From positions 1-64,000 of the forward strand of contig CAMDPK010000005.1 in assembly GCA_945904015.1 (NCBI GenBank): a DNA stretch of 64,000 nt, in the 5' to 3' direction. Under the pieces are notes generated by a model. The model saw nothing but the letters and a program-made list of their open reading frames with translations, had not been told where the DNA came from and ran no database searches. Both the position numbers and the translations under genes were made by a program. Below are positions 31,573 through 54,169 of the stretch, in pieces. Numbering within the stretch: the first letter of the stretch is position 1; every line of letters begins with the position of its first letter. The stretch comes from Candidatus Kuenenia stuttgartensis (GTDB taxonomy: Bacteria > Planctomycetota > Planctomycetia > Planctomycetales > Planctomycetaceae).

Positions 31573-32679
31573 TCACCGTTTCGCAATCACAATCGAGGAC
31601 GCCATCACGGCGAGCACTGCGAGCGCGAACAAAAGGCTGAGGTGACCTCCGGCAGAAGAAGTGTGGGTGAGATTGGCCGGAGTTGGCTGTGAAGCGTGTG
31701 ATGCGTGGCCGGAGGGGATTGCGATTAAGGTTGGCTCGGAGTCGGTTGTGGAATCGCTCGCGGTGTCTGGTGAAGGCTCGGAGGTCTCGCCATAGAGTCG
31801 CTCTTCCCAGTTCATCTCGCAGAGCAAATCGAAGCCTGGGTTTTGTTGTTTGACCTGACAGGAGCAGGCACCGCACAGATACCGAGTCAGGTCGCTGATG
31901 GAATCGGGATCGACTTCGCGAGCGGATTGCACATTCAGCACTCGTCCGCGACCGAAGACAGGGGCGAGATACGAATCGCTCGCCAGCGGTGGCTTCGCGA
32001 AGCCTCCATGCAGCAGCTTGATGAGAGCTTGCTCGGCGCGCGAGTCCGTGGAAAGTTCAACGACGGAGAACTTCAGGTGCAGCGGAATCCTGGCACGCAA
32101 CTCGGAGCCGGGTTGGCCGACACCGGGAGGCAGCTCGATCTGATCGGCGAGGTTTTCGAGTGCAGAGTCGAGAGCTGCTTTCGCGCGGGCGGCTTGCTGT
32201 TTGTCGGTGCCTCGCACGAGCAGCCAGACGACGGCGTCCCCTTGAAGCAAGCGTTGCGCGACGTCGCGACGTGCGGGTGACGTCGCGAGTGTGTCCAAGA
32301 AGGGGTCGCTCAAACGTCCTTGCCACACGATGGATTGCCCGGTGGCTTTGCGTGGCGTTCGCACGACGACGGCCGGCAGCGGGGCGTCCTTCAGCGATTG
32401 CCACAGGGCGAGCAAATCGGCCGGCACGCGGCCATCCAGATCGCAGCGCACGACTTCCAGATTCACCTGGCCGCCATTGTGAACAGCGAGGTCTTCCAAT
32501 TGATTCAGGCATTTCGCATCCGTGCCGTTCAAGGGTCCGCGGTAGAAGACGGAGACCTCAAACAAGTCGGGGGACCAGCGCTCCAACGCAAATCGAAATA
32601 CCGGGATCGAGCACGCGGGAAGCGTTTGTGCCGACGCCAAGAACGCCAGCAGAGTCAGAACGAAGAGACGCAGCGACAT
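31573..32679 (-). CDS. partner protein A: secreted protein with C-terminal TM anchor, paralog of 40884-42146
   Basis: Signal peptide. Conserved blocks shared with partner B are PVFRFALERW.PD, AVWLLL, PVFGRGR and CGACSCQVKQQNPGFDLL. C-terminal hydrophobic segment LLFALAVLAVMASSIVIAKR. No family recognised. Confidence 0.6.
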   Translation of the reverse strand: MSLRLFVLTLLAFLASAQTLPACSIPVFRFALERWSPDLFEVSVFYRGPLNGTDAKCLNQLEDLAVHNGGQVNLEVVRCDLDGRVPADLLALWQSLKDAPLPAVVVRTPRKATGQSIVWQGRLSDPFLDTLATSPARRDVAQRLLQGDAVVWLLVRGTDKQQAARAKAALDSALENLADQIELPPGVGQPGSELRARIPLHLKFSVVELSTDSRAEQALIKLLHGGFAKPPLASDSYLAPVFGRGRVLNVQSAREVDPDSISDLTRYLCGACSCQVKQQNPGFDLLCEMNWEERLYGETSEPSPDTASDSTTDSEPTLIAIPSGHASHASQPTPANLTHTSSAGGHLSLLFALAVLAVMASSIVIAKR

Positions 32680-32732
32680 GATTCACAACCAAAATGGACG
32701 GGCAAAGAGGATAGCGCGGCGAAACCGCAAAT

Positions 32733-32846: not shown

Positions 32847-32876
32847 TCAATCCATCTGGCGAACGTGGCTACAAAC

Positions 32877-35800
32877 CTACTGCCCAAGGCACAGCACTTT
32901 GCCGTCGATGGTGGCGACGAAGATGCGGCCGTAGGCGGTGGACATGCCGTCCCAGACGGGCGTGCTTTTGAATTGAACGTTGCTGACGGCGCGGCCATCT
33001 TTCAACGAGACGGCGAACAACTGGAAGCCGAGTTTGCCTTCCAGCGCGTCATCTTGTTTTTGAAGCTGCGCGTGAATCGCCGGGTCTTTCGCGGCGAGAC
33101 GTTCAAAGGCGTATTCCTCGTCGAGGAAATCCGGCGGGCCGGCGTACAGCAGCGAATCTTTGCCGAGCACCATGCTGCGGCAAAACACCGGACTGAACTG
33201 AGTCCATTGATGCTCGAAGTGCAGGCCGCCCGGTTTTGCATTGCCGCCAGTCGCTGCTGCGGCCAGCTTCGGGAACAGCACGCAGGTTCCGATGCGACCT
33301 TGTCCGGTCGGCTGGCCGCCGAGATCGCCGTCGTTCTTGTGTCCCGAATCATCTCGCGCCGAGCCGTTATCGAACGTCAGTGCGACCTGAGCTTGAGCCG
33401 TCAGCCGCCGGGACTTTTCGGGATCGTCATGCGCTTCGGTAATTTCGGTGGCGGTCAGTTCGCGATGGAAGATGCGCACCTCGTCAACGGCTCCGACCAA
33501 TGGCGACGGACTTTTGTAATCTCCCACCGAGCCGCCGTTGTCGCCGCCGATCTCCAAAGGCTGAGCGGGATTGGTCGCGATCAACGCCTTGCTTTCGGAC
33601 TTCGCTTGCAGCTTGCCATTCACGTAAAGCTTCATCGACTTGTCCGCGCCGAGCACTCCGGCCAGATGACACCAGCCGTTCGGCAGCCGAATGTCGGCCG
33701 TCGCCGTCGCGAGTTCATTGGCGGCTCGGACATGGAACGACGGTTTGCGACCTTCAAACGTCAAGGCGTATCCGTTCGTCGGGCCGCCGTGCGCCACGAC
33801 GACTCCGGCCGGAGCGTCGGCCTTCACCCAGGCTTCGACGGTCAACGCCGTCTTGGCTGGATCGAGCGAATCGGTCTTCTCGAAGGAGACGGTGAAGGCG
33901 TCGCCGACAGCGCGTTTGCCTTTCGCGCCCGGCTTAGCACCGGCTCCTGCGACTGGCGCGTCACCGGCGGCATCGCGACTGGAGGAGAAGAGCTGATGTT
34001 CGAGCGTCGTGGTCCAGCGGTAGTACTGCGGCTGTCGTGCGTAGCCGAAGACGTCTTTGTCATTGAAGACCAGGATGCGGCCGGATGGCGTGTACTTGCC
34101 GGCTTGGTAGTAGCCGTTGTGTCCTCCGGCGAAGCTTTTGCCATAGACCCAATACGAACGATGGAACCAACTGTCGTCGAGGTAGCCCATCGGCGCGAAC
34201 AAATGCCGGCCGGGGCCTTTTTGATCTCCCCCTTGTTCCTCCGCATTGCCGGAGATCGGACCAATGTCGATGCGTTGGCCCTGAGCGTCAAACTTTTGAG
34301 ACCGCAGATAAATGAACTCGTTGTCGGACGAGAGGAGGTCGTTCAAGCCGACCGGCATCTGCAAGGTCTTCAGGCGGACTTGAATGTCCTCGCCGGTAAC
34401 TGGATCGCGATCGTCCATCACCGTCTCCGACAACTTCGTGCCGGTACGCGGATCGAGCCGCATGTAGCGCATGCCTTGATCGAGGAAGCTCGATCGTCCG
34501 CAGACGAATGTTGCAATGTCTTTTTCGACCAGCACCGATCCATGCACGGGCCAGACCGATTCAATCTGCTCGAACGAACCCAAGCGGCGATCGACCGGGG
34601 CGGCTCGGTAGCGCCACGCCAGCGCCCCATCGGACGCGCGCAGGCAATAGACCCAGCCGTCCACCGAGCCGAACAGCAGCCGGCCTTTCCAGTACGTCGG
34701 CGGCGAATCGACACGCCCGCCGGCCGTGAAGGTCCAGCGCGATTTCCCGTTGGCCACGTCGAGCGCATGCACGGTGTGCTGGTCAATCTGCGCGACGAAC
34801 ACGAGCCTTTCGGCAATCGTGAGCGCGGACAGACGACCCGGCAGCTTGATCTCCCAAGCCATGCTCAAGTCTTCGAGCAGTTCCTGTCCGGAAGAGCCAC
34901 TGCGGGCGTTATCGTGCCGATACGCCGGCCACTCCTCGACGGTCGCGTCACGCTCTTTGATCGAGTCGAACGCCAGACCTTTCTCCAAACGATCGGCCTC
35001 GGAAATCTCCTTCGGCAGCCGAGCGGACTTCAACGGCGGAGCCAGCGCGTTCAGCCCATACAGCTTTGCTTCGGGATAGCAGGCGCAGTCGTGCGGCGGA
35101 GCGTAGATCAAACCGTTGCACGGCATGACTCCGTACAAACAACCGCCGCGCACCCAGTGGTTGATGTCCCAGTGCTTGGCATTGAAGTCCACCAACTCGA
35201 TCCCCGTTCGCGACGGAATTAAGAAGCGATCGGTCGCCTTAGCGATGTAGCAGCGATGGTGAAACCAGTACGTGTCGATGTCGGGAGCAAACTGCGATTT
35301 CACTTCGCCCGATTTCGGATCGCGACCGGTGTAGATGCCCGAGTCTCGTCCGCTCGTCGTGGGAGCAACCCACACCAACCCGCCAGTGCAAATCAAATCC
35401 TGCGGCGATTGATAGCCGGACGGAGCATGCTCGGATTCCCACAGCAGTTTGCCATCGGACGCCGAACACGACTGCATCCGACCATCGCCGCCGGCATGCA
35501 GAACGACCTCGCCGTGCAGCACCAGCCGCGGAGCGAAATGGAACGGCAGCGCCTTGCGTCGCGCCGTCGGCTCGCTAGTCCATTGTTTCTGCCCCGTCAC
35601 GCGGTCGAGGCTCACGATCTCCTTGCCGTTCGAGTAGACCAGCCGCTGGTCGTTGACCGCCATCGTCAGCGGCACGATCGTCCCTTCGATCTTCCACAGG
35701 CGCTTGCCGGTCGCGGCATCGTGAGCCTGAATCTCGCGCGGGCCTTCGTTCCAGGTGAACTCACCGGCAACGCGGCCTTGATCGCCGGTGTTCAGCTTCG

Positions 35801-36785
35801 GGGCAAAGTCTTCCAACTCGGACGGGTTCGGATTGACGAGCGTGAACATCACGCTGTTGCTCAGCACAATCTCTTCCGCACCCTTCGTCGATTCGTAGAC
35901 CAACTCCGTTTTGCCCGTCGCGGCATCGAGCCGACTGACCGGGTCTTTGATCCCCATCGTCACATAGACGTGTTCGTCATCCGCGACCAACCGGCGAGCC
36001 AATTGCGTCGGCCCGCTCTTGAGCGGCCACATTTGATTGTGCCACTTGGCGATCGGCCGCTTCCACAGAATCGTGCCGTTGAAGCCGTCGCGCGAGATGA
36101 GGTTCCACTTCGACGGAAGCTGGATCGAAATCCGCGAGCCTTCATCCATGATGTAAGTCATGCGTCCCTTGGCCGAGACCAGAGCACTCATGCTCGCCAT
36201 GCGATCGTGATGCCGCGACCAACGGGGCGACCCGACCCACTGCAACCGCTCCGGCGTATCGACCACGCTATCGTGAGCAACCGGATTGCCGCTCGCGTCG
36301 TGAAAGTAGTGCGTCCAATCGTCGATGTCCTTCGGCCACGGCTTGGCGAGCTTGGTCCATTCGCCGCTCTGTTTGAGATAACCGACTCCATTCGGACAAA
36401 GCACTCGCAGCACTTCGTCCGTCGAAACGCCCAGCAACTCTTCCGCAACTACCAGATTCACGAAATTGTCGATGTAAGGCAGCGACGTTCCACTGAGCCG
36501 ATCGACGGAGACCGGCCCATAAACTCCCTTCGCTCGCAGATTGCGGCGTGCCTTCGCCACGTCGTCAGCATCCGGATCAAGTCCTTGCACCTGATAGCTG
36601 TCACTCGCCCGCAGCGCGGCCGTGAGTACTCCATCGCCGCTCCCCAAATGGACGACGATGCCTCCCTTGATCCCGGTCGCCTTGAGAATCTCCGCCGCTC
36701 GTTCCTTGGGAGCGACATTCTCTTGAGCCACCGCGACGGCCCCCAACACGATCCAGCAACCGACCGAGCATTTCCAAAAAGTCAT
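32877..36785 (-). CDS. giant secreted protein A: methyltransferase-like Rossmann domain + PQQ-like beta-propellers + LamG/concanavalin-like lectin domain
   Basis: ORF 32877-36797; ATG at 36785. Signal peptide. N-terminal class-I MTase-like motifs (VVHLGSGDG, VQGLDPD). Propeller blades with the conserved motif WTHYFHDASGNPV...LQWVGS and Cys cluster HHRCY...GGCLYGVMPCNGLIYAPPHDCACY. C-terminal LamG-like segment (EAWVKADAPAGVVVAHG...LYVNGKL...VDEVRIF). Confidence 0.7.
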   Translation of the reverse strand: MTFWKCSVGCWIVLGAVAVAQENVAPKERAAEILKATGIKGGIVVHLGSGDGVLTAALRASDSYQVQGLDPDADDVAKARRNLRAKGVYGPVSVDRLSGTSLPYIDNFVNLVVAEELLGVSTDEVLRVLCPNGVGYLKQSGEWTKLAKPWPKDIDDWTHYFHDASGNPVAHDSVVDTPERLQWVGSPRWSRHHDRMASMSALVSAKGRMTYIMDEGSRISIQLPSKWNLISRDGFNGTILWKRPIAKWHNQMWPLKSGPTQLARRLVADDEHVYVTMGIKDPVSRLDAATGKTELVYESTKGAEEIVLSNSVMFTLVNPNPSELEDFAPKLNTGDQGRVAGEFTWNEGPREIQAHDAATGKRLWKIEGTIVPLTMAVNDQRLVYSNGKEIVSLDRVTGQKQWTSEPTARRKALPFHFAPRLVLHGEVVLHAGGDGRMQSCSASDGKLLWESEHAPSGYQSPQDLICTGGLVWVAPTTSGRDSGIYTGRDPKSGEVKSQFAPDIDTYWFHHRCYIAKATDRFLIPSRTGIELVDFNAKHWDINHWVRGGCLYGVMPCNGLIYAPPHDCACYPEAKLYGLNALAPPLKSARLPKEISEADRLEKGLAFDSIKERDATVEEWPAYRHDNARSGSSGQELLEDLSMAWEIKLPGRLSALTIAERLVFVAQIDQHTVHALDVANGKSRWTFTAGGRVDSPPTYWKGRLLFGSVDGWVYCLRASDGALAWRYRAAPVDRRLGSFEQIESVWPVHGSVLVEKDIATFVCGRSSFLDQGMRYMRLDPRTGTKLSETVMDDRDPVTGEDIQVRLKTLQMPVGLNDLLSSDNEFIYLRSQKFDAQGQRIDIGPISGNAEEQGGDQKGPGRHLFAPMGYLDDSWFHRSYWVYGKSFAGGHNGYYQAGKYTPSGRILVFNDKDVFGYARQPQYYRWTTTLEHQLFSSSRDAAGDAPVAGAGAKPGAKGKRAVGDAFTVSFEKTDSLDPAKTALTVEAWVKADAPAGVVVAHGGPTNGYALTFEGRKPSFHVRAANELATATADIRLPNGWCHLAGVLGADKSMKLYVNGKLQAKSESKALIATNPAQPLEIGGDNGGSVGDYKSPSPLVGAVDEVRIFHRELTATEITEAHDDPEKSRRLTAQAQVALTFDNGSARDDSGHKNDGDLGGQPTGQGRIGTCVLFPKLAAAATGGNAKPGGLHFEHQWTQFSPVFCRSMVLGKDSLLYAGPPDFLDEEYAFERLAAKDPAIHAQLQKQDDALEGKLGFQLFAVSLKDGRAVSNVQFKSTPVWDGMSTAYGRIFVATIDGKVLCLGQ

Positions 36786-37016
36786 CGCCGACCTCAACCA
36801 TATCGAGTGCAGAATCGACCGGAATTGGACATTTTTGATCCGCTGCAGAGTACCCCGTCTGCTCGTGATCTTGAACCGTGCAAGGAATTCACAGGCGACT
36901 CTTTGGGCAATTGGCTGGGAAGTGGCCGGAACTCTGAGTATTTTGCATGTGCCGTAAACGGCCTGCCGCGTTCTCTGCTCTGTCGAATGCCCGCCCCGAG
37001 AAATTGAGATTGTCGG

Positions 37017-40000
37017 ATGTCACCATCGCCCCGCCGCCTGTTATCCATCGTGATATTGGCCGCACTTCTCTCGCCACTGGCGGCTGAGGGGGGCGATTGG
37101 CCGATCTGGCGCTACGACGCACAGCGCAGCGCGGCTTCGCCCGATGAGCTTCCGGCGCGATTGAGTCTGCAATGGGTGCGTCAGTTGCCGCGCTTGCAGC
37201 CCGCTTGGCCCGATCAGCCCAAGATGCAGTTCGATGCGGCTTATGAGCCGATCGTCGCGGGACAACGGTTGTTCGTTGGCTCGTCGCAGGACGGCAGCGT
37301 CGCCGCCTACGATACGCAGACCGGATCAGAGGCTTGGCGGTTCTTCACCGACGGGCCGGTTCGATTCGCGCCGCTGGCTTGGCAGGAGCGACTCTATTTC
37401 GCTTCTGACGACGGCTACCTGTATTGCTTGCGAGCGCACGACGGTTCGATCGTGTGGCGATTCCGAGGCGGCCCTTCGGATCGGAAGGTTCTGGGGAACG
37501 AGCGGCTCATTTCGACGTGGCCCGCGCGAGGCGCGCCGCTCCTGACCGACGGGAAGATTTATTTCGCGGCTGGCATCTGGCCGTTCATGGGGATCTTCCT
37601 GCACGCGCTCGACGCCACGACGGGGCAAGTACTGTGGACCAACGACGGCGACGGCTCGCTCTACATCAAGCAGCCGCACAACAGCGATTCGTTTGCGGGA
37701 GTCGCACCGCAAGGGCCGCTGGTGGCGATTGGTGGCAAGTTGCTGATCCCTGGCGGCCGTTCGGTCCCGGCCTGCTACGACCGCGCGACCGGGCAGATGA
37801 TTTATTATCAACTCGCCGAGAACGGCAAACGTGGCGGCGGTTCGAGCGTCGCGGCCGTCGATCAATTGCTCTTCAACGGCGGCGCGGCGTTTGATTTGGA
37901 AACGGAGAAGTACCTCGGCGCGATCGGTGAGTTACTGACGTTCGCCGACGGACGGCTCTACGACTACCGCGATCGCACGCTGCACACACAAGAATTGGCG
38001 ACCTCGCAGGTCAAGCTCGCGGACAGCATTGACCGCAAAGGAGTGGTGACGAAAGTCGCCAAGTGGACGATGCGCGAGCTGGGCAAAGTCGAGACTCCAA
38101 AATTGACCGCGCTCATCAAAGCTGGCTCGCGACTGTACGCCGGTTCGGCCGGCCGAGTGTTGTCAGTCAATCTGCCGCTGCCGGAAAAAGGGAAGCCAGT
38201 CATTGCTTGGGAAACGACGGTCGAAGGAACTCCCACCGGTATGATCGCGGCGGATGACAAGCTGTTCGTCGTCACGCTGGAAGGCCAACTGCATTGCTTT
38301 GGCGACACGAGGGACGCTCCCGCGTCACCGCGTCGGCATGACCTCGCGACGCAGCCGCTCGTTGCAGACACCGCTTGGTCGGACAAGGCCGCAGCGCTTC
38401 TCAAGGCCACGCGAGTCGAGCAGGGTTATTGCTTGGCTTGGGGTGTCGGGTCCGGTGGGCTGGTGCGCGAACTTGCCAGGCAAACGGAGTTGCGAATCAT
38501 CGTCATCGAACCAGATTCCGCGAAAGCCAATGCGTTTCGCGAACGAATGCAAAGCAACGGCCTGAGCGAGAGAGTTTCCGTGATCGTCGCCGATCCGCAA
38601 ACGATTTCTCTGCCCCCGTATCTGGCCAGCTTGATCGTCGCGGAATCGCTGCCGCCATTGGCCGACGAAGATCGCGCGAAGTTCCTGAACCAGACGTTTG
38701 ACGCACTGCGGCCGTATGGCGGTGTCGCGTGTTTGCCAATCCCGGCCGAGGAGCGTGCGGCGTACACAATTCCATTTGGCGAGCCGGAGGGCGTCAGCCC
38801 CCGGACGACGTCGCTCAGTCCGGGGGCTGACGCCCTCCGGCTCACCGGTGCCGTTTGGAGGCATGACGGTGAATGGACGCTGCTGATCCGCGATGGAGCC
38901 TTGCCGGACAGTGCCAATTGGACTCACGAACACGCCGACGCCGCCAACACGCGCGTCTCGAAAGACAAGCGAGTGAAAGCGCCGCTCGGCCTGTTGTGGT
39001 TCGGCGGATCGTCAAACGATGCGATCCTGCCCCGACACGGACACGGGCCGCAGCCGCAAGTGGTCGACGGCCGGCTGTTCATCGAAGGAGTCGATCTCTT
39101 GCGGGCGATGGATATCTACACGGGTCGCGTGTTGTGGGAATCGCCGCTGCCCGGAGTTGGCGCGCTGTACGACAACACGGCTCATCAACCGGGAGCGAAC
39201 GCCAGCGGCACGAATTACATCGCGACGCCAGAAGGCATCTACGTGGCGCATCGCAATGCCTGCCTGAAACTCGACCCAACCAACGGCAAGAAAATTGCCG
39301 AGTTCACGCTGCCGAACTCTCCCGGAGCCAAGTCAGCTCCGCTGTGGGGCTATCTCAACGTCGATGGCGACCACTTGATCGGTGGGGCCGATCCGGTGTT
39401 CGATCCGACACAGCTCAAGAATTCCAGCAAATCGAAAACTCCCGGCGGCAGCGACGACGATGACGACGCCAAAAAGAAAACGGCGGCGGTCAAATCGGCG
39501 GTGGCCGACGCGACGGCCGCGGTTGAGAAGCTGCTCAAGATCGACAATGACAACTATGTGTCGAGCAACCGGTTGGTCGTCATGAACCGCGCGACGGGCA
39601 ACGTGTTGTGGACCGCAACGGCGCGCAGCAGCTTCCGGCACAACGCGATTTGTCTCGGCGGCGGGCGGATGTACTGCATTGATCGCGCGTCGGGAGCAGA
39701 AGTGTCTCGCTTGAAGCGGCGCGGCGAGACGCCGAAGCATGAGCCGCGTCTTGTGGTCTTTGATCTCAAAACCGGTCAAGAACTCTGGAGCACGGAGAAC
39801 GACGTCTTCGGCACCTGGCTGAGCTACTCGGCCGAGCGTGACGTGTTGGTCGAGGCCGGACGCAACGCCAGCGATACGCTCGGCGACGAGCCGAAAGGGA
39901 TGCGCACGTATCGCGCAACGAGCGGCGACGCGTTGTGGTCCAGCAAGACCTTCACAGGTCCGGCGATGATTCATCACGACACGATTCTGATGGCCGGCAA

Positions 40001-42162: not shown

Positions 42163-42185
42163 AGTCGCGGTGCGACAGGGCTACT
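42163..42185. repeat. single REP unit of family F1 (CGCGGTGCGACAGGGCTAC)
   Basis: Half of the F1 doublet. It overlaps the stop of giant gene C, between convergent genes. Confidence 0.5.
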
Positions 42186-45317: not shown

Positions 45318-45370
45318 GGGACAAGCCCGGAGGGGTGAAAATGCAGGTGCAGCTTATCCTGCGGATGAAC

Positions 45371-46129: not shown

Positions 46130-46273
46130 TGTGGAGTGCGTTGCTGAAGGAATTCACGAAGCGAAAACTAACCCGAAGCGTCAGCGAGGGCGAGCGCTTC
46201 ACGGAGACTCGATGACAAATTCATTGTCACTTGGAGCGTCCGCCCTCGCTGACGCTTCGGGTTACAAATCATC

Positions 46274-46555
46274 TCAACCGCCGGCGATCGGCGGCAACAA
46301 GGTCACGACGTCATTCGTGTGCAGTACGGTGGTCGCCGCGTCGCGGGCTGACACGGCGGAATCATTCACGACGATGAGCAAACTCGGACGTGCTTGTCTG
46401 GCTTCCGTCACGAAGTGCGAACTCGCCGCGCCATACGTTGTCGCCAACTGGTTGAGCAAATCGGCCAAGCTGCCTCCCTCCGACAATTCCATCTCTTCCT
46501 CGGCGCGCCCCACGACCGCGCGAAGTTGTGCCATGTATTGCACCCGCAACTTCAT
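46274..46555 (-). CDS. MoaD/ThiS-family ubiquitin-like sulfur-carrier protein (ends in Gly-Gly)
   Basis: 93 aa from MKLRVQYMAQL..., ending ...VVTLLPPIAGG. Lies 140 nt upstream of the E1-like gene. Confidence 0.6.
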   Translation of the reverse strand: MKLRVQYMAQLRAVVGRAEEEMELSEGGSLADLLNQLATTYGAASSHFVTEARQARPSLLIVVNDSAVSARDAATTVLHTNDVVTLLPPIAGG

Positions 46556-47235
46556 GATTCCGTGCTCCCGGCCAGCGGCGTGTTCAGGCTCGCGAGCGGT
46601 TGCTCGCACAGTTGGCCGGACTCCAAAACGAACAACTTCTCGGCCAGAGCACGAGCCTCGACTCGGCTGTGCGTGATGTGCAGTGTCGTCAAGCCGCTTT
46701 GCTTTTGCACCGAACGGAGTAACTCGCAGAGCCGGTCGCGAGTCGCTTCGTCCAGCGCGTTCAACGGCTCGTCGAGCAGCAGGACTCGCGGCCGGAACGA
46801 CAACGCTCGGCCGAGTGCGACTCGCTGGGCTTCGCCGCCGCTGAGGTTTGTGACTCGGCGAGTCAGCAGCGACTCGATTCCCAGGACATGAGCCAGTTCG
46901 GCAACTCGGTCACGCATCAGAATCTTCGAGCAGTGACGGACTCGCAATGCGAATTCCAGATGTCCGCGCACCGTCATCATCGGGAACAGGGCAAGGTCTT
47001 GCGGCACATAGCCGACGCCTCGGTCGCCCGGTTTCCAGCGCGTGATGTCGCTGCCGTTCAAAAGAACTCGGCCGCTGGTCACGGTGCGTAGTCCGCAGAT
47101 TGCTTCGAGGATGGTTGTCTTGCCTTGGCCTGTGCCGCCCATCAGCACCGCGTATGTGCCTTCGGGAATCGACAAGCCGACGTTCGTCAGCGAGAACGGG
47201 CCGGAGCGGATCGTGATGTCGCGTAGTTCGATCAT
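46552..47235 (-). CDS. modC: ABC transporter ATP-binding protein (molybdate/tungstate ModC-like)
   Basis: Walker A GGTGQGKTT, signature LSGGEAQRV, Walker B LLLDEP. 227 aa, short like ModC. The ModC identity is inferred from the neighbouring genes. Confidence 0.65.
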   Translation of the reverse strand: MIELRDITIRSGPFSLTNVGLSIPEGTYAVLMGGTGQGKTTILEAICGLRTVTSGRVLLNGSDITRWKPGDRGVGYVPQDLALFPMMTVRGHLEFALRVRHCSKILMRDRVAELAHVLGIESLLTRRVTNLSGGEAQRVALGRALSFRPRVLLLDEPLNALDEATRDRLCELLRSVQKQSGLTTLHITHSRVEARALAEKLFVLESGQLCEQPLASLNTPLAGSTES

Positions 47236-48125
47236 CGGATCACCTTCGTTCCGACCAGCCGCACAACTCCGAGCACCGCCATCGCGGCCAACACCATCAG
47301 CAGCGACACCGCCACCGCCGCTTCGAGCTGCCCAACGCTCAGTTCGAGGAACACCGTCGTCGAGAGGACTTCGGTGCGCATGCGAGTCGCTCCGGCGAAG
47401 ACCAGGATCGGGCCGAACTCGCCGAGTGACCGTGCCCAAGCGATCGTCAGCGCCGCGATAATCCCGCGCCAGGCTTGAGGCAACGCGATTTGCAGAAACG
47501 CCTGGCTGCGTCGACAACCGAGAGTCATCGCGACTTGCTCGGCGCGCGCGTCGATCTGGTCGAACGTCACACGCATCGTCTGCACAGCGAACGCGCAGGC
47601 CACGGAAAACTGAGCCAACACAACCGCCGGCTCGGCGTAGGTAATCCGGGGCCTCCAGCGGCACTGCGCGAACGGAATCCAGTTGTTCCAAAAACGAATC
47701 AATGCGCCCAACAACTGCTGGATCAGCTTCTCAAGATTCGTGTCGTCCGGCGGCTCCAGATTCGTATCGCCGAGCGGCAGATGGAACAGGATCAACAGAC
47801 TCAATCCAATCACCAGCGGAGGCAACACCACGGGGATGTCGATGAGCGTGTCGATCAACCAGCGCCCGCGAAACGAGAATCGCGACAACAAATATCCCAG
47901 CGGCGTCGCCACACAAATCGACAGCAGCGCCGAAATCGTGCATGTGATCAGCGTGAGTTGGATGGCATATTGAATCTCTGGCTTGCGCAGTGCGGCCACA
48001 AAGTGCTTCGGTGATGTGAAGGCGAGATCGGCCGCAAGCATCGCAACGATCAACAAAACAAAACTGCCGCCAAGTCCGCCCATCACAACAAAGAACGGCA
48101 CGTCCGAACCGGCGCGATGCGCCAT
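47232..48125 (-). CDS. modB: ABC transporter permease (ModB-like)
   Basis: Six hydrophobic helices. EAA-type loop AWARSLGEFGPILVFAG. ATG chosen at 48125 (MAHRAGS); the ORF extends to 48311 through the hairpin repeat. Confidence 0.65.
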   Translation of the reverse strand: MAHRAGSDVPFFVVMGGLGGSFVLLIVAMLAADLAFTSPKHFVAALRKPEIQYAIQLTLITCTISALLSICVATPLGYLLSRFSFRGRWLIDTLIDIPVVLPPLVIGLSLLILFHLPLGDTNLEPPDDTNLEKLIQQLLGALIRFWNNWIPFAQCRWRPRITYAEPAVVLAQFSVACAFAVQTMRVTFDQIDARAEQVAMTLGCRRSQAFLQIALPQAWRGIIAALTIAWARSLGEFGPILVFAGATRMRTEVLSTTVFLELSVGQLEAAVAVSLLMVLAAMAVLGVVRLVGTKVIR

Positions 48126-48132
48126 TCCTGGC

Positions 48133-48203
48133 GAGCCGGAGGGCGTTAGCCCCCGGACATCCACGGATCCTGTCGCAGTCCGGGGGCTAACGCCCGCCGG
48201 CTC
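48133..48203. repeat. REP-like hairpin family F5, intergenic copy between modA and modB
   Basis: GAGCCGGAGGGCGTTAGCCCCCGGAC ... GTCCGGGGGCTAACGCCCGCCGGCTC. It fills the modA-stop to modB-start gap. Confidence 0.6.
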
Positions 48204-49743
48204 ACTTGGTCGTGTTGACATGCGACCTCTCGCCGACCCACTGAAATCCCTCGCTGGTGAATCGCTCCTTCGAAGAGTCCGCACGAATCGCCTGCCGCAA
48301 CCGTTCAGCAAGTTGCTTGTTGGCGGAATCCTTGGCCACCCCGAACGGCTGCGTCGCGACCGAGCAGGGGATGCCCTTGATGCGGATCGCGTCGAGAAAT
48401 TCTCCCGATCCGGCCGCGTTGCTGAGATACGCCACGGCCGCGTCGAGCGAACCCGATCGCATTTGATTGACCAGCATGTCCCCGGTCGGCGTCTGCACGA
48501 CGACGTTCTTCATGACCTCTTCCTTCACGCCACCCTCGTCGAAGGTCTTCTGCGTCAGCCAGCCCATCGCGCACTGCTTCTCGTGACCGACGCCGACTCG
48601 CAGTCCCGGCTTGGCGAGGTCGTGCAGCGACTTGATGCCGTGTGGGTTCCCCTTCTTCACGATGATGACCAACTCGTTTTGCGAGACATTTTCGGATTCG
48701 GGGAACAGTCCGCGCACCTGATTCATGAACTCGACGTCGCAAGCGAAGTAGGCGTCCGGCACCTGTCCCGCTTTCATCTGCGCGACCAGAATCCCGCAGC
48801 CGTTGTAAACGCGAGTGACTCGCACCCCTTCGCGTTTCTCAAAGTCGGTGATGGTCGCCTCGATCGCCGGCCGCAGCATCGATCCCGAATACAACGTGAT
48901 CTCCGGCTGCTCGCTCCACACATCGCCGTCCACCGGCTGAAACCCGAACTCGCGGTACTTCGCCAAGCCTTTGTCGCGTGCCGCCAGATAGCGTGCGAAG
49001 TGCAATGCTCGTTGCGGCTGACCGCTCGACTTCAACACGGCCACGGCAACGTGAGCTTGCACCGCCGCCAATTCCGACATCGCGACCGCTTCGAGCGAGT
49101 CGTAATCATGCAAGACGGCGTCGAACACGATGCCGGCATCGACCGCGCCGACCTTCACATCGTTGGCCACTTCATTGACGGTCGTCTTGTAGACCGTCGT
49201 GCGAGCATGCAGCTTGTCCCACTGACCGCTCGCCGTGAGCGCGGCGCATGTCAGCTTGCCGATCGCCGACGCTTCCACGCTGGCTTGGGCCAACCGCATG
49301 TCGTCCTGCAACAAGTCTTCCAGGCGAGCGATCCGTTTGGGATTCCCTTTCGCCACCGCGACGACCGCCTGCATCTTCGCCAGCGGAAACTCGGACGTCT
49401 CACTGGCGAGCAACTTTCGCTCGCGAGCGATTGCCAGATAGCTGTCGTCCGCCGGCAAGTAGAGATCGCCCGTGCCCGACACTTCCAGCGACGCGAGCAA
49501 AGTCTGCGACGGCCCATATTGGATTTGCAGAGTCGTCTTGCAGTCCCGCTCGTAATCGCTGCGAATAGCTTCCAGCACGCTCTTGTTGCTGGCGGCGCAA
49601 TAAATGACGAGCGGCTCGTTCGTCTCCGCCACGGTCGTTGTTCGAGGCTGGCGAACGAGGCCTGCCACCAGAACAATCACAAGCGCGAGCGACGCCAGCA
49701 TGACCGCCATTGTGCGTGTGATTGAACCGTGGTGCCGACCCAT
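48202..49743 (-). CDS. modA: tandem-fused periplasmic molybdate/tungstate-binding protein (two ModA-like domains)
   Basis: ATG at 49743 (MGRHHG..., then TM/signal MAVMLASLALVIVLVAGL). Two consecutive ~250-aa type-2 periplasmic-binding domains, each opening with an (L/P)(V/I)(I/T)LY..(A/S).. block (PLVIYCAASNKSVLEAI... and EITLYSGSMLRPAIEAT...). Confidence 0.6.
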   Translation of the reverse strand: MGRHHGSITRTMAVMLASLALVIVLVAGLVRQPRTTTVAETNEPLVIYCAASNKSVLEAIRSDYERDCKTTLQIQYGPSQTLLASLEVSGTGDLYLPADDSYLAIARERKLLASETSEFPLAKMQAVVAVAKGNPKRIARLEDLLQDDMRLAQASVEASAIGKLTCAALTASGQWDKLHARTTVYKTTVNEVANDVKVGAVDAGIVFDAVLHDYDSLEAVAMSELAAVQAHVAVAVLKSSGQPQRALHFARYLAARDKGLAKYREFGFQPVDGDVWSEQPEITLYSGSMLRPAIEATITDFEKREGVRVTRVYNGCGILVAQMKAGQVPDAYFACDVEFMNQVRGLFPESENVSQNELVIIVKKGNPHGIKSLHDLAKPGLRVGVGHEKQCAMGWLTQKTFDEGGVKEEVMKNVVVQTPTGDMLVNQMRSGSLDAAVAYLSNAAGSGEFLDAIRIKGIPCSVATQPFGVAKDSANKQLAERLRQAIRADSSKERFTSEGFQWVGERSHVNTTK

Positions 49744-50188
49744 GATGGCGACGCCTTTCACAGAGTCGTCAGAGGCCCGTGACGGCGATTGGCTTGGGGC
49801 AACGTGGCGGACAAGCATATTTAGACCACACGAAATCAGGCGGGATCGACCAATACCAGGACGCGATTTGCATCCTAAGTCGCTCCCGTTGAGCGTGCAA
49901 CGAGTGGCTCGGTCGATCCCACGGCTGGCGAATTTGTGAATGTGGCTCGTAGCCACGCTCGCCAAGAGCGTGGGGAACGTGTCCCAAGCGTGGTCGTCCC
50001 ACGCTCTTGGCGAGCGTGGCTACAACTGCAAACCCAACGCAAACCAAACTTCTAGCCAGCCGTGGGTCGATCCCCTCGGCGATACTCGCGAAGCATCTGC
50101 CGCTGTATGCTGTTCGGCGATCTTGAATCGAATCCTCTGGCCGAAAGGCCGCTCCTGATTGGCGACTCCAAAATTGAGAGGACGACCG

Positions 50189-53100
50189 ATGCGACAACTT
50201 TCTACGGCTCATTTTCGCAGTCTAGTTTTGGGTTGGATGTTGTGGGGAGCGATCTCCGGCGGTGTCTGCGTCGCCGCTGATTGGCCCACCTATCGTGGCG
50301 ACAACGCTCGCGGCGGTACGTCGGCGGAGACGGTTCGAGTTCCGCTGAAGCCGCGTTGGATCGCGAGCGCTCCCGGCTCTCCGCAGCTTTCGTTTTCGAG
50401 CGCCGAAGGGCGAGTGATCGAAGGACATTTGCTGGGACATCGGGCCAAGTACGATGACGCCATTCATCCGGTCGTGGTCGGACAGCGAGTGTTCTTTGGG
50501 TCGTCGGTCGATCATCAGTTGCACTGCGTCGATCTGGTCAGCGGCGCGGAACTGTGGACGTTCTTCAGTGGCGGGCCGATTCGGCTCGCACCGACGGTGA
50601 ATGGAGGACGAGTCTATTTCGGTTCCGACGATGGCTGCGCCTATTGCCTCGACGCTGCTGACGGCCGGCTGTTGTGGAAGTTGCGGGGCGGCCCGGCGGA
50701 CGAGTGGTTGCTAGCGCGCGGCGAGATGGTCTCTCGCTGGCCGGTTCGCACGAGCGTGCTCTTGGATCGAGGGACCGCCTACTTCGGTGCGGGGATCTTT
50801 CCGCATGATGACGTTTATCTCTACGCCGTGAACGCGGCGGATGGTTCGATCGTCTGGAAGCAGGACAACATCAGTTCGCTCGATGCCGGGCGAAACGATC
50901 TTTCGCCGCAGGGATATCTGCTGGCGAGCGAAGAGCTGCTGTTCGTCCCGTCCGGGCGGACGCTGCCGGCGGCGATTGATCGCGCGACCGGGAAGTTGCT
51001 GCACAAGCGCGAATTCGGTTGGCGTTCAACAGCGGGCGGAGTGGTCGGCAGCGTGCAGGCGCTGCTGTCGGATGGGCAGATTTATTCGGCGGGGCCACAT
51101 CATCTGCTCGCGATGGAGCAGAAGACCGGCGACGTCGGCTTCGGCTGGTTCGCGGGGCGGCAGATGGTCGTGGGAGGTGACGCGGCCTACGTTGCTACCG
51201 GCGAAGTCATCGCGCGGCTCGATCGTCAGGAATACGCGGTTAACAGCCGCCGCCGGCATCAATTGGAATTGGACATCACTAGCTTCAACACGCAGCTTCG
51301 CGCGGCTGGTGCCAAGACGGATGAAATCAAGAAGAAGCTCAGCGAGGCTCAGGCGGAGCTGAAGCGCATCGCGGACGTCGGCTTCGTCTGGCAGACGAAG
51401 ACCAACGACGACTCGTCCCTGCTCGCTGCGGGCGACTTGGTTTTTCTGGGAGGACAAGGCCGCGTGACCGCGTACTCGTCGAAGACTGGCGAGAACCTCT
51501 GGCAGAACAACGTGGAGGGGGAAGTGCGCGGGCTGGTTGTCGCGGCCGGGCATCTGCTCGTCAGCACGAGCACCGGTCGCATCTACAACTTTGCCTCGGC
51601 CGAACTCCAGTTGGCGGAGGTGCCGCCGACCGCGAAGCTCGTCAGCAATCCATTTCCCGACGACAACCTCACGGCGGTGTATCGGCAGGCGGCCGAGGAG
51701 ATTCTCAAGCAGAGCGGAGCGCGGCGCGGTTTCGGACTGATCGTCGGCAATGAACAAGGCCGGCTGGCTTTTGAACTCGCCAAACGGAGCGAGTTGAAAA
51801 TCTACGCCGTTGAACCGGATGCGAAGAACGTCGCCGCGGCGCGAGCCAACCTGTCGCGAGCCGGACTCTACGGCACGCGGATCGTTGTGCATCAGGGCGA
51901 TCCCGCTGATGTCCCGTACTCGAACTACTTCGCCAACGTCATCGTGTCCGACACGTTCGTGAAGACCGGCGTGTTGGTCGGCGATGCGAAGAAACTCGTC
52001 CGACATCTCAAACCATTGGGCGGCACGATCGTCGTGGGTCGCCCGGCGTCGGCTCCCGGAAAGTCTGTCGAGATGTCCGCCGTCACCGACTGGCTGCGGC
52101 AGACCGCGCTTGATGACCAATCTCAAGTCGCAGACGACAACGGCTGGGCCACGCTCAAGCGCGGCGCGCTTCCGGGTGCCGGCAGTTGGTCGCATCAGTA
52201 CGGCAATGCCGCCAACACGGCGGTCAGTCTCGACACGCGGCTGAAGGGAGATCTCGGCGTGCTCTGGTTCGGCGACCCGGGTCCGGGGGACATGGTCAAC
52301 CGCCACGAGGGCGCAGTCGGTCCGCTTGCCACGGGCGGAAGGTTGTTCGTGCAGGGAGAAGATTCCATCTCGGCCTACGACGCTTACAACGGAACCTCAC
52401 TCTGGAAGTACGAGAACCCGAAGGCCCTCCGCACGGGTGTCTTTCAAAATCAGAACCCCGGCAACCTGGCGGCGTCCGACGATAGGCTGTTCCACTTCAT
52501 CAAGGAGCAATGCTTTGAACTCGACGCGGCCACGGGCGAGACGAAGCGCGTCCATCGCCTGCCGCCCGACAAGGACAGTGAAACCCACGAATGGGGCTAC
52601 GTCGCGACCGAGAACGGCGTGCTCTTTGGCACCGCCACGATGCGCAAGGAATTGGAAGCGAAGCTGAAACGGCGCGGACTGAAGACCGCCGACGCGACCG
52701 ACGGCATCTTCGCCATCGACATCGCCACTGGAAAACATCTCTGGAGCTACCAGGGCCAGAGCATCTCGCATCACACGATCGCCATCAGCCCTGAGAACGT
52801 CTATTTCATCGACAGCTCGATCACGCCCGAACAACGCGCGGAGTTGCTGCGAGCCGACAAAACCGATCTCGCCAAGTTGACGGACAAGGAGCGTGAGATC
52901 GCCGAAGATCGCGCGAAGAACGCCGACATCCGCCGAGCCGTCGCGTTGAACGCTCGCACCGGCAAGCTGCTCTGGGCCAATCCGGTGGACGTGACCGATT
53001 GCAGCGACATCGGCATCGGCGGCGGCAAGCTCACGCTGATGTATCACGACAACGTCCTGATCCTCGGCGGTGCCAACGCCAACGGTCACTATTGGAAGCA

Positions 53101-54169
53101 GTTCGTCGCCGGCGAGTTCTCGCGACGCCGGCTGGTCGCGCTGTCCGCTCTGCACGGCTACAAGCTCTGGGCCAAGGACGCCAACTACCGCCACCGTCCC
53201 ATCGTCGTCGGCAGCCAAGTCATTGCCGAGCCGTGGTCGTTCGACCTCGGCAGCGGCGAGCAGAAGACGCGGTCACATCCGCTGACCGGCGCGGAAGAGC
53301 CGTGGAGCATCATGCGCACCGGACACCACTGCGGCATGTTGACCGGCTGCGAATCGGGAATGCTGATGTTCCGCTCCGGCAACACCGGTTTCTACGACCT
53401 GAATACCGACTCCGGCACGCGACACTTCGCCGGTCATCGCCTGGGCTGTTGGATCAACGCCATCCCGGCCGGTGGACTGGTGATGATTCCCGAAGCCAGC
53501 GCCGGCTGCGTCTGCCTGTTCTCAATCGCCTCGACGATCGTCATGGAACCGCGCGAGACGCGCCGACCGTGGATGATTACCAGCGCCGTCGGCGCGCAGA
53601 CACCGGTGCAGACAATGGCCCTCAACCTCGGAGCACCCGGCGACCGCAAAGACGCCCAAGGCAAACTCTGGCTGTCGTACCCACGTCACAAGGCGTACCA
53701 GGAAACATCGCTCGACGTGAAACTCGATCTCAAGCCCAAGTTCAAAGCGGGCGGGCAATTCACCAGCGTCGGCGAAACATCGCAACCCATCGACGGCACC
53801 GAAACTCCCTGGCTCTACACCTCCTGGGCCGAAGGTCTGGAACAACTCACACTGCCGCTCCTCGGCCCGAAGGACGAGCCGGCCACCTACACCGTGCGAC
53901 TGCACTTCGCGCGGCTCGGCAATGACACCGGTAACGCTGAGCCGATTGTGTTCAACGTCCAATTGCAGGGCAAAACGGTGCAGGCCGACGTGTCGTTGCC
54001 CGTCGTCCCCGCGTCTCAAGAGGCCAACGCGGCCAGTCGCGCGACGGCCATCGTTCGCGAATTCGAAAACGTGCGAGTGACCGCCAACCTGGTCGTTGAC
54101 CTCGTTGGCAAGCAGGGCCGATCCAGATTGAGCGCAATCGAAGTGGTGAGGACCGAAGCCGGACGGTGA
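50189..54169 (+). CDS. giant secreted protein D: PQQ-like propeller / coiled-coil insert / MTase-like domain / second propeller with Cys-His motifs / malectin-like C-terminal domain
   Basis: ORF 50159-54169; ATG at 50189 (MRQLSTAHFRSLVLGWMLWGAISGGVCVAA). Conserved SWSHQYGNAANT...VLWFGD and GCWINAIPAGGLVMIPEASAGCVC. C-terminal TYTVRLHFARLGND...IVFNVQLQGK...AIEVVR resembles the tail of giant B. Confidence 0.7.
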   Translation: MRQLSTAHFRSLVLGWMLWGAISGGVCVAADWPTYRGDNARGGTSAETVRVPLKPRWIASAPGSPQLSFSSAEGRVIEGHLLGHRAKYDDAIHPVVVGQRVFFGSSVDHQLHCVDLVSGAELWTFFSGGPIRLAPTVNGGRVYFGSDDGCAYCLDAADGRLLWKLRGGPADEWLLARGEMVSRWPVRTSVLLDRGTAYFGAGIFPHDDVYLYAVNAADGSIVWKQDNISSLDAGRNDLSPQGYLLASEELLFVPSGRTLPAAIDRATGKLLHKREFGWRSTAGGVVGSVQALLSDGQIYSAGPHHLLAMEQKTGDVGFGWFAGRQMVVGGDAAYVATGEVIARLDRQEYAVNSRRRHQLELDITSFNTQLRAAGAKTDEIKKKLSEAQAELKRIADVGFVWQTKTNDDSSLLAAGDLVFLGGQGRVTAYSSKTGENLWQNNVEGEVRGLVVAAGHLLVSTSTGRIYNFASAELQLAEVPPTAKLVSNPFPDDNLTAVYRQAAEEILKQSGARRGFGLIVGNEQGRLAFELAKRSELKIYAVEPDAKNVAAARANLSRAGLYGTRIVVHQGDPADVPYSNYFANVIVSDTFVKTGVLVGDAKKLVRHLKPLGGTIVVGRPASAPGKSVEMSAVTDWLRQTALDDQSQVADDNGWATLKRGALPGAGSWSHQYGNAANTAVSLDTRLKGDLGVLWFGDPGPGDMVNRHEGAVGPLATGGRLFVQGEDSISAYDAYNGTSLWKYENPKALRTGVFQNQNPGNLAASDDRLFHFIKEQCFELDAATGETKRVHRLPPDKDSETHEWGYVATENGVLFGTATMRKELEAKLKRRGLKTADATDGIFAIDIATGKHLWSYQGQSISHHTIAISPENVYFIDSSITPEQRAELLRADKTDLAKLTDKEREIAEDRAKNADIRRAVALNARTGKLLWANPVDVTDCSDIGIGGGKLTLMYHDNVLILGGANANGHYWKQFVAGEFSRRRLVALSALHGYKLWAKDANYRHRPIVVGSQVIAEPWSFDLGSGEQKTRSHPLTGAEEPWSIMRTGHHCGMLTGCESGMLMFRSGNTGFYDLNTDSGTRHFAGHRLGCWINAIPAGGLVMIPEASAGCVCLFSIASTIVMEPRETRRPWMITSAVGAQTPVQTMALNLGAPGDRKDAQGKLWLSYPRHKAYQETSLDVKLDLKPKFKAGGQFTSVGETSQPIDGTETPWLYTSWAEGLEQLTLPLLGPKDEPATYTVRLHFARLGNDTGNAEPIVFNVQLQGKTVQADVSLPVVPASQEANAASRATAIVREFENVRVTANLVVDLVGKQGRSRLSAIEVVRTEAGR

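Follow-up and report, generated by a model that had tools for sequence, protein, structure and literature searches.

Molybdate uptake is usually described as the work of ModABC alone. In fold and operon logic, the locus reported here resembles AztD-AztABC, in which a periplasmic propeller zinc metallochaperone accompanies an ABC importer, and the nearest kinds of propeller are the eight-bladed BamB/PQQ-like ones (YxaL, Rv3035, quinoprotein dehydrogenases, and tetrathionate hydrolase). Here, we show the gene content, protein families, folds, invariant residues, and cross-genome linkage of a locus at positions 31573 to 54169 of the window, the whole 64,000-nucleotide stretch of DNA that was analyzed. 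Across much of two phyla, the genes of a ModABC-type importer come after those of two additional extracytoplasmic proteins, a giant propeller protein and its partner. We tentatively propose that the locus is one conserved Planctomycetes-Verrucomicrobia supercluster and not four loose paralogues, and that its giants and partners may serve a molybdate/tungstate (Mo/W)-type ABC importer. In a literature search, no prior description of the cluster was found.

The locus differs from these systems in several respects. With three to four times the size of AztD, the giants contain two propellers in addition to methyltransferase-like and lectin domains; the transporter falls into the ModABC oxyanion class, whereas AztABC belongs to the zinc cluster A-I class; and the cluster has an additional thioredoxin-fold partner. 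The AztD model (NF038015) was matched by giant C only, at 15.7 bits versus a cut-off of 400. BamB is a lipoprotein of about 390 amino acids, whereas the giants have 1,000 to 1,300 amino acids and extra domains, and they reach only 45.9 to 72.3 bits with the BamB model (TIGR03300; cut-off, 285). Their 33.9 to 63.7 bits with the quinoprotein dehydrogenase model (TIGR03075; cut-off, 480) represent generic propeller-repeat similarity. The giants therefore score far under the cut-offs for specific BamB/PQQ-like families, and the structural neighbors of their propellers are generic folds of this kind, with no specific enzyme match. We know of no BamB/PQQ-like family that has the invariant Cys/His loop motifs of the giants.

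Architecture and conserved residues of the giants

ORFs, Pfam matches, and BLASTP paralogy agree with the original prediction of four paralogous secreted giants. All six ORFs, those of the giants and of their two partners, occur where the original prediction placed them. The giants are A (32877 to 36785, minus strand, 1,302 amino acids), B (37017 to 40880, plus strand, 1,287 amino acids), C (42181 to 45192, minus strand, 1,003 amino acids), and D (50189 to 54169, plus strand, 1,326 amino acids). Giants A and B face apart, divergent as predicted, across a 219-nt spacer (36798 to 37016). The profile-HMM comparison recovered the expected PQQ, methyltransferase, LamG, and malectin models: all four giants match PQQ_2 (E values of 1e-27 to 6e-39) and Methyltransf_25 (27.3 to 33.5 bits; cut-off, 27), giant A matches Laminin_G_3 (82.1 bits; gathering cut-off, 27.6), and giant B matches Malectin (42.3 bits; cut-off, 23). 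The tail of giant D scores 18 bits with Malectin, under the cut-off of 23, but is homologous to that of giant B, because the B-D BLASTP alignment extends to B 1282 and D 1319. Another giant, unrelated to these and containing LVIVD repeats, is located at 13109 to 17008 of the window.

Giant B is composed of a signal peptide, a PQQ-like propeller, a methyltransferase-like domain (residues 474 to 568), a motif propeller with the W-x-H and C...CxC motifs, and a malectin-like tail (residues 1181 to 1282). Propeller, methyltransferase-like domain, and motif propeller follow in the same order in giant D (methyltransferase-like domain at residues 519 to 611), which also ends in a malectin-like tail, and in giant C (residues 457 to 531), which has no lectin tail. 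In giant A, the signal peptide precedes the methyltransferase-like domain (residues 44 to 131), the Cys/His-motif propeller (residues ~140 to 600), and a second PQQ-like propeller, into which a LamG domain is inserted (residues 976 to 1115). Thus, the methyltransferase-like domain is embedded and the motif set lies on the second propeller, as originally described, in B, C, and D, but in A the domain is N-terminal and the first propeller carries the motifs; lectin-like domains occur in all giants except C. Full-length identity is 33.5% between B and C, 28.6% between B and D, and 31% between C and D. Giant A is a domain-order permutation of B, C, and D, with which it aligns at 22 to 34% identity in two blocks (A 23 to 569 with residues ~442 to 987 and A 618 to 785 with residues ~27 to 206). 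The A type, which is highly conserved, is the canonical form and the one found ahead of the partner in other genomes.

W-x-H and four Cys residues (C512, C549, C567, and C569 in A numbering) are the only motifs common to all four types. The predicted set of invariant Cys/His positions holds to this extent, but the many invariant His residues are specific to the A type. All four Cys are invariant in the 121 A-type giants compared (121/121), and so are RHHDR, YWFHHRCY, and PPHxCACYPE among the A-type Cys/His loop motifs. At least 95% identity is found at 420 of the 1,302 A-type positions, and A-type giants of Planctomycetes and Verrucomicrobia are 54 to 66% identical. In the predicted model of giant A, which is otherwise good, the Cys/His loops have pLDDT values below 50.

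The methyltransferase-like domain was considered as the catalytic core and set aside, since it is the least conserved part of the A type and its SAM motifs are degenerate in about one-quarter of the orthologues. Class I SAM-dependent methyltransferases have a SAM-binding motif I (GxGxG), whose glycines are retained by 111, 94, and 96 of 121 A-type orthologues, and an acidic residue that ends strand 2, where 89 of the 121 have D or E; several species have lost motif I. Moreover, the domain would be exported to a compartment in which SAM is not expected. On these residue patterns, it is probably not the conserved catalytic core.

Partner proteins and transporter genes

Partner P1 (31573 to 32679, minus strand, 368 amino acids) follows giant A, and its paralogue P2 (40884 to 42146, plus strand, up to 420 amino acids, with a true start possibly further downstream) follows giant B; the longest P2 ORF begins 3 nt past the B stop codon. 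P1, which contains the motifs PVFRFALERW, PVFGRGR, and CGACSCQVKQQNPGFD, is 34% identical to P2 (E value of 2e-51), and each carries a signal peptide and, at the C terminus, a hydrophobic membrane anchor, in line with the pair of secreted, anchored paralogues noted originally. The proteins had also been described as unplaceable in any family, and indeed no Pfam or NCBIfam model matched P1 or P2, nor did a partner-family profile match any PDB sequence, even at E values up to 1. At a clustering threshold of 50% identity, the family comprises about 3,600 clusters.

The predicted model of the partner consists of two thioredoxin-like domains. The fold is like that of Sco1/SenC, MauD, DsbD-C, and PDI b domains, but the partner has neither CxxC nor CxxxC: no CxxC exists at the start of helix 1, with no Cys at either expected position, and the Sco1/SenC-type CxxxC and distal His that act as copper ligands are not present. 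Unlike in thioredoxin-fold assembly factors, the invariant Cys residues of the partner sit at the mature N terminus (C23, the predicted first mature residue) and in a C-S-C past the second domain (C272 and C274). In P1, the signal peptide cleavage site is A-x-A|C. A role of the N-terminal Cys as a lipoprotein anchor was judged less likely, as a classical lipobox occurs in just 21 of 255 family members; positions -3 and -1 of the family agree with cleavage by signal peptidase I at A-x-A, and position -2 is often charged.

The genes at 45371 to 49743, between giants C and D, belong to the same conserved cluster, which the original prediction overlooked. All are on the minus strand. A membrane-anchored tandem ModA-like substrate-binding protein (48202 to 49743, start taken at MGRHHG) is followed by an ABC permease of the molybdate/sulfate porter class (47232 to 48221, with a start at 48221 or 48125), an ABC ATPase without a TOBE domain (46552 to 47235, start taken at MIELRD), a MoaD/ThiS-family sulfur-carrier protein (46274 to 46555, 93 amino acids), and a MoeB/ThiF-family adenylyltransferase (45371 to 46129, 252 amino acids). 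The binding protein scores 101 bits with the modA model (TIGR01256), above the cut-off of 62.5. The permease scores 184.6 bits with TIGR01581 (cut-off, 210) and 134.2 bits with modB (cut-off, 182.6), and the best NCBIfam match of the ATPase is the tungstate transporter ATPase WtpC (199.6 bits; cut-off, 440); judged by these models, the class of both proteins appears right, yet the scores are under the equivalog cut-offs. The MoaD/ThiS protein matches PF02597 (ThiS) at 55.4 bits (cut-off, 22.5; E value of 9e-15) and has the C terminus ...PPIAGG. The MoeB/ThiF protein matches PF00899 at 186 bits, and its best NCBIfam matches are MoeB models, under the equivalog cut-offs. Giant C lies 148 nt 3' of MoeB on the same strand and may form the end of the transporter operon. 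Giant D is divergent from the ModA-like gene, an arrangement also found in one other locus (L074). Neither partner gene adjoins the transporter in the window.

The likeness to ModABC with MoaD/MoeB consists of the passed modA model, the porter-class permease, and the adjoining MoaD- and MoeB-family genes. The differences are the membrane-anchored tandem of two ModA-like domains, four invariant Cys in the second of them, an ATPase lacking TOBE, and an operon that opens with giant and partner genes. For both domains of the binding protein, the best solved relatives in the PDB are molybdate-binding proteins. Its invariant Cys residues are C49, C316, C335, C391, and C460, the four of domain 2 included; two of those four are close to positions aligned with anion-contacting residues of Escherichia coli ModA. 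The aligned E. coli ModA ligand positions are partly kept, with equivalents of S12, S39, and V152 in domain 1 and of Y170 in domain 2. Sulfate or thiosulfate as a cargo was set aside, because every model or structure matched by the binding protein is a molybdate-binding one; Mo/W is preferred, although unproven.

Linkage across genomes

Linkage was counted in loci from different species, in a collection with one genome per species. In 61 of 79 species loci, the gene immediately 5' of the partner encodes a giant and lies on the same strand; the remaining 18 partner genes have no upstream giant. The original prediction would have been refuted by a lack of cross-genome linkage between partner and giant genes, and it withstands this check. 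Directly downstream of the partner, a tandem ModA-like gene, followed by permease and ATPase genes, is present in 37 of 72 loci, and both neighbors (giant upstream, tandem ModA-like gene downstream) occur together in 35 of 70. MoaD and MoeB often accompany the importer: both genes neighbor the transporter in 11 loci as well as in the window. Elsewhere, the core operon consists of an A-type giant, the partner, the tandem ModA-like binding protein, a ModB-like permease, and an ABC ATPase, to which MoaD and MoeB are often added. The partner is followed in 24 loci by an FtsX-type permease and ATPase; in five of these, a ModA-type transporter exists further downstream.

Pairing follows the paralogues. 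In 48 of the 51 full cases, the giant that a P1-like partner follows is of the A type, and P2-like partners adjoin giants of the B, C, and D types, which argues for a specific giant-partner relationship. Unsupervised clustering of the ORFs of 82 loci returned only giant, partner, binding protein, permease, ATPase, and ThiF as widely recurrent neighbors. When the search was started from the giant, the same operon was recovered in Roseibacillus (Verrucomicrobiota), on a metagenome contig, and on a contig of a Planctomycetaceae bacterium assembly. Synteny persists at 35 to 45% partner identity, across orders and two phyla. The adjacency and the paralogue-specific pairing strongly support the original notion of a fixed module as opposed to a random propeller expansion.

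Possible roles and intergenic elements

If the cluster serves Mo/W import, the giants and partners would form a module for capture, processing, and hand-off on the outer side of the cytoplasmic membrane and would supply the tandem binding protein of the importer with an oxyanion of the molybdate/tungstate type or a closely related, thiol-reactive one, while MoaD and MoeB would perform molybdopterin sulfur chemistry inside the cell. The cargo is suggested by family membership and by MoaD/MoeB. We infer both the direction of the hand-off, from giant to partner to binding protein, and catalysis by the invariant Cys/His loops of the giant. The putative metal handling proposed originally is indirectly supported by the conserved linkage to an importer of the ModA/ModB/ModC type, to MoaD, and to MoeB, and the invariant extracytoplasmic Cys residues in giant, partner, and binding protein also support the idea. 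For the carbohydrate handling proposed alongside it, the analysis confirmed the lectin-like domains, so that sugar binding would be a candidate role. Several observations count against Mo/W hand-off: the FtsX-type pair that comes after the partner in 24 loci is no oxyanion importer, neither partner gene of the window adjoins the transporter, 18 of 79 partner genes lack an upstream giant, the window contains no Moco riboswitch recognized by Rfam, and Cys residues in or near a ModA-type anion site are atypical for molybdate binding.

The conservation of the A type also counts against this reading, as it goes beyond the need of a simple chaperone and favors an enzyme. It is conceivable, although unlikely, that the A-type giant is an unrecognized periplasmic enzyme acting on Mo/W species, with the product passed to the importer by a thiol relay. 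A Mo/W species, e.g., thio- or organically bound molybdate, would be bound or converted at its Cys/His loops, and the relay would run from the N-terminal Cys and C-S-C of the partner to the Cys-lined domain 2 of the tandem ModA and on to the ABC importer. Such a system would be a new extracytoplasmic step of Mo/W acquisition specific to Planctomycetes and Verrucomicrobia.

Alternatively, the giants may be end users, i.e., periplasmic redox or metalloenzymes whose Cys/His loops hold a metal center or a Cys-derived cofactor, with the partner as a dedicated maturation factor or metallochaperone and the ABC systems (FtsX or ModABC type) supporting maturation or merely coregulated. We regard this as doubtful but a serious candidate. 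Parallels exist in Sco, which serves copper enzymes, and MauD, which serves methylamine dehydrogenase, although the partner lacks CxxC as well as the Sco-type CxxxC and His. The extreme A-type conservation with its three fully invariant loop motifs, the paralogue-specific pairing, and the FtsX-type pairs adjoining the partner all fit end users, and low-confidence loops in an otherwise good model are expected of a site that requires a ligand. However, the generic structural neighbors of the propellers point to no specific enzyme, and it would be unexplained why a complete ModA/B/C importer with MoaD/MoeB is the commonest downstream neighbor in two phyla.

It is improbable that the giants are BamB-like, lectin-bearing scaffolds that organize envelope or polysaccharide biogenesis, with the binding-protein fold as a structural partner by analogy to the mycobacterial Rv3035-FecB complex. 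The LamG and malectin domains would suit such scaffolds, and sulfatase and 3-keto-disaccharide-hydrolase genes are frequent neighbors, but sulfatases are very common in these genomes and take no fixed position here. Furthermore, the binding protein is followed by permease and ATPase, which makes a complete importer, the highest BamB score (72 bits) is far from the cut-off of 285, and the invariant Cys/His loops would be left unexplained. Planctomycete genomes contain many large propeller proteins, the LVIVD-repeat giant of the window among them, so an ordinary lineage-specific expansion with a small hitchhiking gene and no functional coupling might also be imagined. This is very improbable: it is contradicted by the linkage counts, since the loci are not near identical, by synteny that outlasts the divergence of the partner, and by the specific pairing and extremely conserved residues.

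If the giants and partners feed the transporter, a new step would be added to Mo/W acquisition, and there would be a first functional handle on two large families whose sole present annotations are "PQQ-binding-like beta-propeller repeat protein" and "hypothetical protein," respectively. If the giants are instead enzymes matured by the partner, they would form a new family of periplasmic Cys/His enzymes. Under either reading, the cluster is clearly delimited and lends itself to tests in planctomycetes that are amenable to genetics.

When the complete window was compared with Rfam, neither a Moco riboswitch nor any other family was recovered. A perfect 26-nt inverted repeat with a 23-nt loop (49949 to 50023) lies between giant D and the divergent binding-protein gene.

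Two linked protein families without annotation

Four giant secreted propeller proteins, A (32877-36785, minus strand), B (37017-40880, plus), C (42181-45192, minus), and D (50189-54169, plus), and two small partners that follow A and B, P1 (31573-32679, minus) and P2 (40884-42146, plus), are all present as open reading frames where the original prediction had placed them. Together with the transporter genes between C and D, which that prediction had overlooked as part of the same set, we rate the cluster, which is built on two large families without annotation, as an ABC metal/oxyanion importer that has accessory proteins outside the cytoplasm.

All window proteins were used to search 82 loci from different species; the loci were picked by partner similarity, and the linkage fractions therefore describe partner genes, not all giants. 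In 61 of the 79 loci with at least 1.5 kb of upstream sequence, the partner is immediately preceded by the end of a giant gene on the same strand; of the 51 such giants that are full length, 48 are A-type. P2-like partners recovered from metagenomes adjoin B-type giants in the nearest relatives and B-, C-, or D-type giants further out. Thus, the pairing is paralog specific, which is hard to explain other than by a functional relationship between giant and partner. Unrelated genes (encoding PSCyt/PSD proteins, EamA, or a peptidase) lie upstream of about one-fifth of the partner genes, and among seven giants seen in giant-side or incidental checks, a partner follows immediately downstream in five and not in two. 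Unsupervised clustering of open reading frames in the 82 loci returned few widely recurrent neighbors: the giant (62 loci), the binding protein (45), the ATPase (34), the permease (27), and ThiF (11). These linkage counts rule out chance paralog expansion, in agreement with the original prediction that the giants are not a random propeller expansion, for which linkage of partner and giant across genomes had been set as a test.

The partners had been described as impossible to place in any family, and indeed neither P1 nor P2 has a Pfam or NCBIfam match. They are 34% identical to each other (E, 2e-51), and each carries a signal peptide and a hydrophobic C-terminal anchor; a C-terminal hydrophobic stretch is found in about 58% of the members analyzed. 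A word-indexed search gave at least 1,610 relatives, every one unnamed or "hypothetical," an exhaustive profile search gave 3,610 clusters at 50% identity (2,262 with E <= 1e-30), and at least 586 species had a relative when one genome was scanned for each. Invariant among 22 diverse members are A22-C23, P-V-F-R-x-A-L-E-R-W, F-G-R-x-R, and A-C-S-C-x-V-K-x-x-N-P-G-F-D. The first Cys lies at about position 27 in 255 of 262 members. Because the preceding residue is Ala in 238 of these 255, position -3 is A, L, or V (position -2 is variable and often charged), and only 21 of 255 fit a lipobox, this Cys is most likely the first residue of the mature protein.

Domain order and invariant residues of the giants

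In Pfam scans, the propeller and methyltransferase-like domains predicted for A to D were recovered (PQQ_2, E of 1e-27 to 6e-39; Methyltransf_25, 27.3 to 33.5 bits, barely over the cutoff of 27), as were the LamG domain of A (Laminin_G_3, 82 bits) and the Malectin domain of B (42 bits), whereas the Malectin domain claimed for D scores 18 bits, below the cutoff of 23. The D tail is homologous to that of B, since the B-D alignment extends to both C termini; the scan found no lectin tail in C. Judged by reading the sequences, A to D each begin with what resembles a Sec signal peptide.

Full-length identity among B, C, and D is 29 to 34%. Two blocks of A align with them in swapped order, residues 23 to 569 with about 442 to 987 of B/C/D and residues 618 to 785 with about 27 to 206. 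By this alignment, the domains of A are permuted relative to those of the others, which contradicts the earlier description of its methyltransferase domain as embedded, and the unit common to all four consists of the methyltransferase-like domain plus a propeller with W-x-H ... C ... C ... CxC. Of the invariant residues, W-x-H and the four Cys alone are common to all four paralog types.

The A-type family has at least 4,743 matches at E <= 1e-20, a figure that takes in paralogous giant types. The best 120 matches to A are all about 1,270 to 1,360 residues long and 54 to 66% identical across their full length; they come from Planctomycetota, Verrucomicrobiota, and bins labeled Phycisphaerae and are annotated as nothing more than "PQQ-binding-like beta-propeller repeat protein" or "BamB." In 46 A-type orthologs from the loci, 420 of 1,302 positions are at least 95% identical. 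The methyltransferase-like domain is the least conserved part: among 121 A-type orthologs, the three motif I glycines are retained in 111, 94, and 96, no more than 89 have D or E at the acidic position following strand 2, and the motif is gone in several species. W157-T-H159, R191-H-H-D-R195, Y506-W-F-H-H-R-C-Y513, H543-W-V-R, C549-L-Y-G, and P564-H-x-C-A-C-Y-P-E572 are invariant in all 121. A predicted model of A residues 25 to 610 is good overall (pLDDT, 79; pTM, 0.84), with pLDDT below 50 precisely at the invariant loops (185-196, 507-510, 545-550, and 565-594, numbered on full-length A), as might be expected of a site needing a ligand or partner.

The transporter set and the role of the giants

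The interval between C and D holds minus-strand genes for a membrane-anchored tandem ModA-like binding protein (48202-49743), then a permease and an ATPase, a 93-residue ThiS/MoaD-family protein with a Gly-Gly end (46274-46555; Pfam, 9e-15), encoded by a small unlisted frame between ATPase and MoeB, and MoeB (45371-46129), with giant C 148 nt beyond on the same strand. In 37 of 72 loci, the next gene after the partner encodes a tandem SBP_bac_11 protein and is followed by permease and ATPase genes, the same set as in the window; transporter set and upstream giant occur together in 35 of 70. The window order B-P2-C-MoeB-MoaD-ATPase-permease-binding protein is repeated in locus L088; L083 has B-P2, the transporter set, and A-P1 in one contiguous block; and D is divergent from the binding-protein gene in the window as in L074, whose second giant is D-type. 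The MoaD/MoeB pair is also present in 11 of the loci and in a Roseibacillus (Verrucomicrobiota) genome (L144, 9597-9872). Starting from giants, the same operon was found in this genome, where the MoaD-MoeB pair is divergent, in one metagenome contig, and in one Planctomycetaceae bacterium assembly contig.

In NCBIfam, the binding protein passes modA (101 bits; cutoff, 62.5), the permease is of the Mo_ABC_porter/modB class with scores a little under both cutoffs (184.6 and 134.2 bits), and the ATPase is closest to WtpC, a tungstate ATPase. For each of the two binding-protein domains, the best relatives in the PDB are molybdate-binding proteins. Across 42 orthologs, domain 2 is the more conserved half, and C49 in domain 1 and C316, C335, C391, and C460 in domain 2 are invariant. 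C316 and C391 align 1 to 2 residues away from ModA positions that are anion contacts in the Escherichia coli protein; invariant Cys residues beside such positions are unusual in an oxyanion-binding protein.

The conserved operon, the paralog-specific pairing, the ModABC-class importer with MoaD and MoeB, and the invariant extracytoplasmic Cys residues of giant, partner, and binding protein lead us to propose, tentatively but as the best-supported reading, that giants and partners may form a module outside the cytoplasm for capture, processing, and hand-off that serves an oxyanion importer of the Mo/W type. Giant and partner would capture and process the cargo outside the cytoplasm, and the cargo would then be handed to the importer; we infer its identity, the direction of transfer, and any catalysis. 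In the main rival reading, which we consider somewhat less likely, the roles would be reversed, the giants acting as Cys/His enzymes of the periplasm and the partner as the thioredoxin-fold factor that matures them. The extreme conservation of the giants would fit such enzymes, as would the FtsX-type ABC pairs: genes for an FtsX-type permease (PF02687) and ABC ATPase follow the partner in 24 loci (L063, L076, L096, L102-L105, L111, L112, L120, L121, L123-L125, L127-L135, and L140), with a ModA-type transporter next in 5 of them (L123, L124, L125, L129, and L132) and a methyltransferase-like/PQQ-like giant in L105 and L130; the window has no FtsX gene. However, maturation of an enzyme gives no explanation for the near-constant ModA/B/C-MoaD-MoeB neighborhood. 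A scaffold or envelope role, modeled on Rv3035-FecB (PMC13041763), is possible by analogy but weaker, and we regard it as improbable.

For the hand-off module, the nearest parallel in operon logic is AztD-AztABC, in which the binding protein receives its zinc directly from a periplasmic propeller (PMC6689063). The component superfamilies are known (PQQ/BamB-like propeller, class I methyltransferase fold, LamG/malectin, thioredoxin fold, ModA/B/C, MoaD, and MoeB); the proteins belong to none of the function-implying families tested (quinoprotein dehydrogenase, BamB, AztD, Sco, and CxxC thioredoxin), and no prior description of the cluster was found in the literature searched.

Other neighboring genes and repeats

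In L145, a contig labeled Phycisphaerae, a 126-residue rhodanese (5205-5585) replaces the partner after an A-type giant, and in several Pirellulales loci (L020, L026, and L074) the neighboring MoeB is a MoeB-rhodanese fusion. A sulfatase gene (30109-31533, plus) lies directly beside P1; sulfatases occur near the cluster, at no fixed position, in 12 of 82 loci (listed for L026, L027, L031, L038, L059, L066, L080, L081, L105, L147, and L148), and 3-keto-disaccharide-hydrolase (DUF1080-type) genes also recur (L002, L019, and L146). Both may just mirror gene abundance in these genomes.

A fifth giant (13109-17008, minus; 1,299 residues) has LVIVD repeats and is unrelated to A to D; the adjoining 746-residue frame (17145-19385, minus) has no Pfam match. 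In the nearest relative of the window, L003 (a metagenome-assembled genome labeled Planctomyces sp. SH-PL62, with a 93% identical partner), A is divergent from an ortholog of D (1404-5390, minus; 85% identity) and not from one of B, which indicates that the supercluster was recently rearranged. In the 445 nt that separate the divergent ModA-like and giant D genes lies a perfect inverted repeat of 26 nt with a loop of 23 nt (49949-50023), enclosed by a 12-nt inverted repeat (49918-49929/50055-50066). The 26-nt repeat is unique in the window, with 0 matches expected by chance, and may act as a shared regulatory site or form an RNA hairpin.
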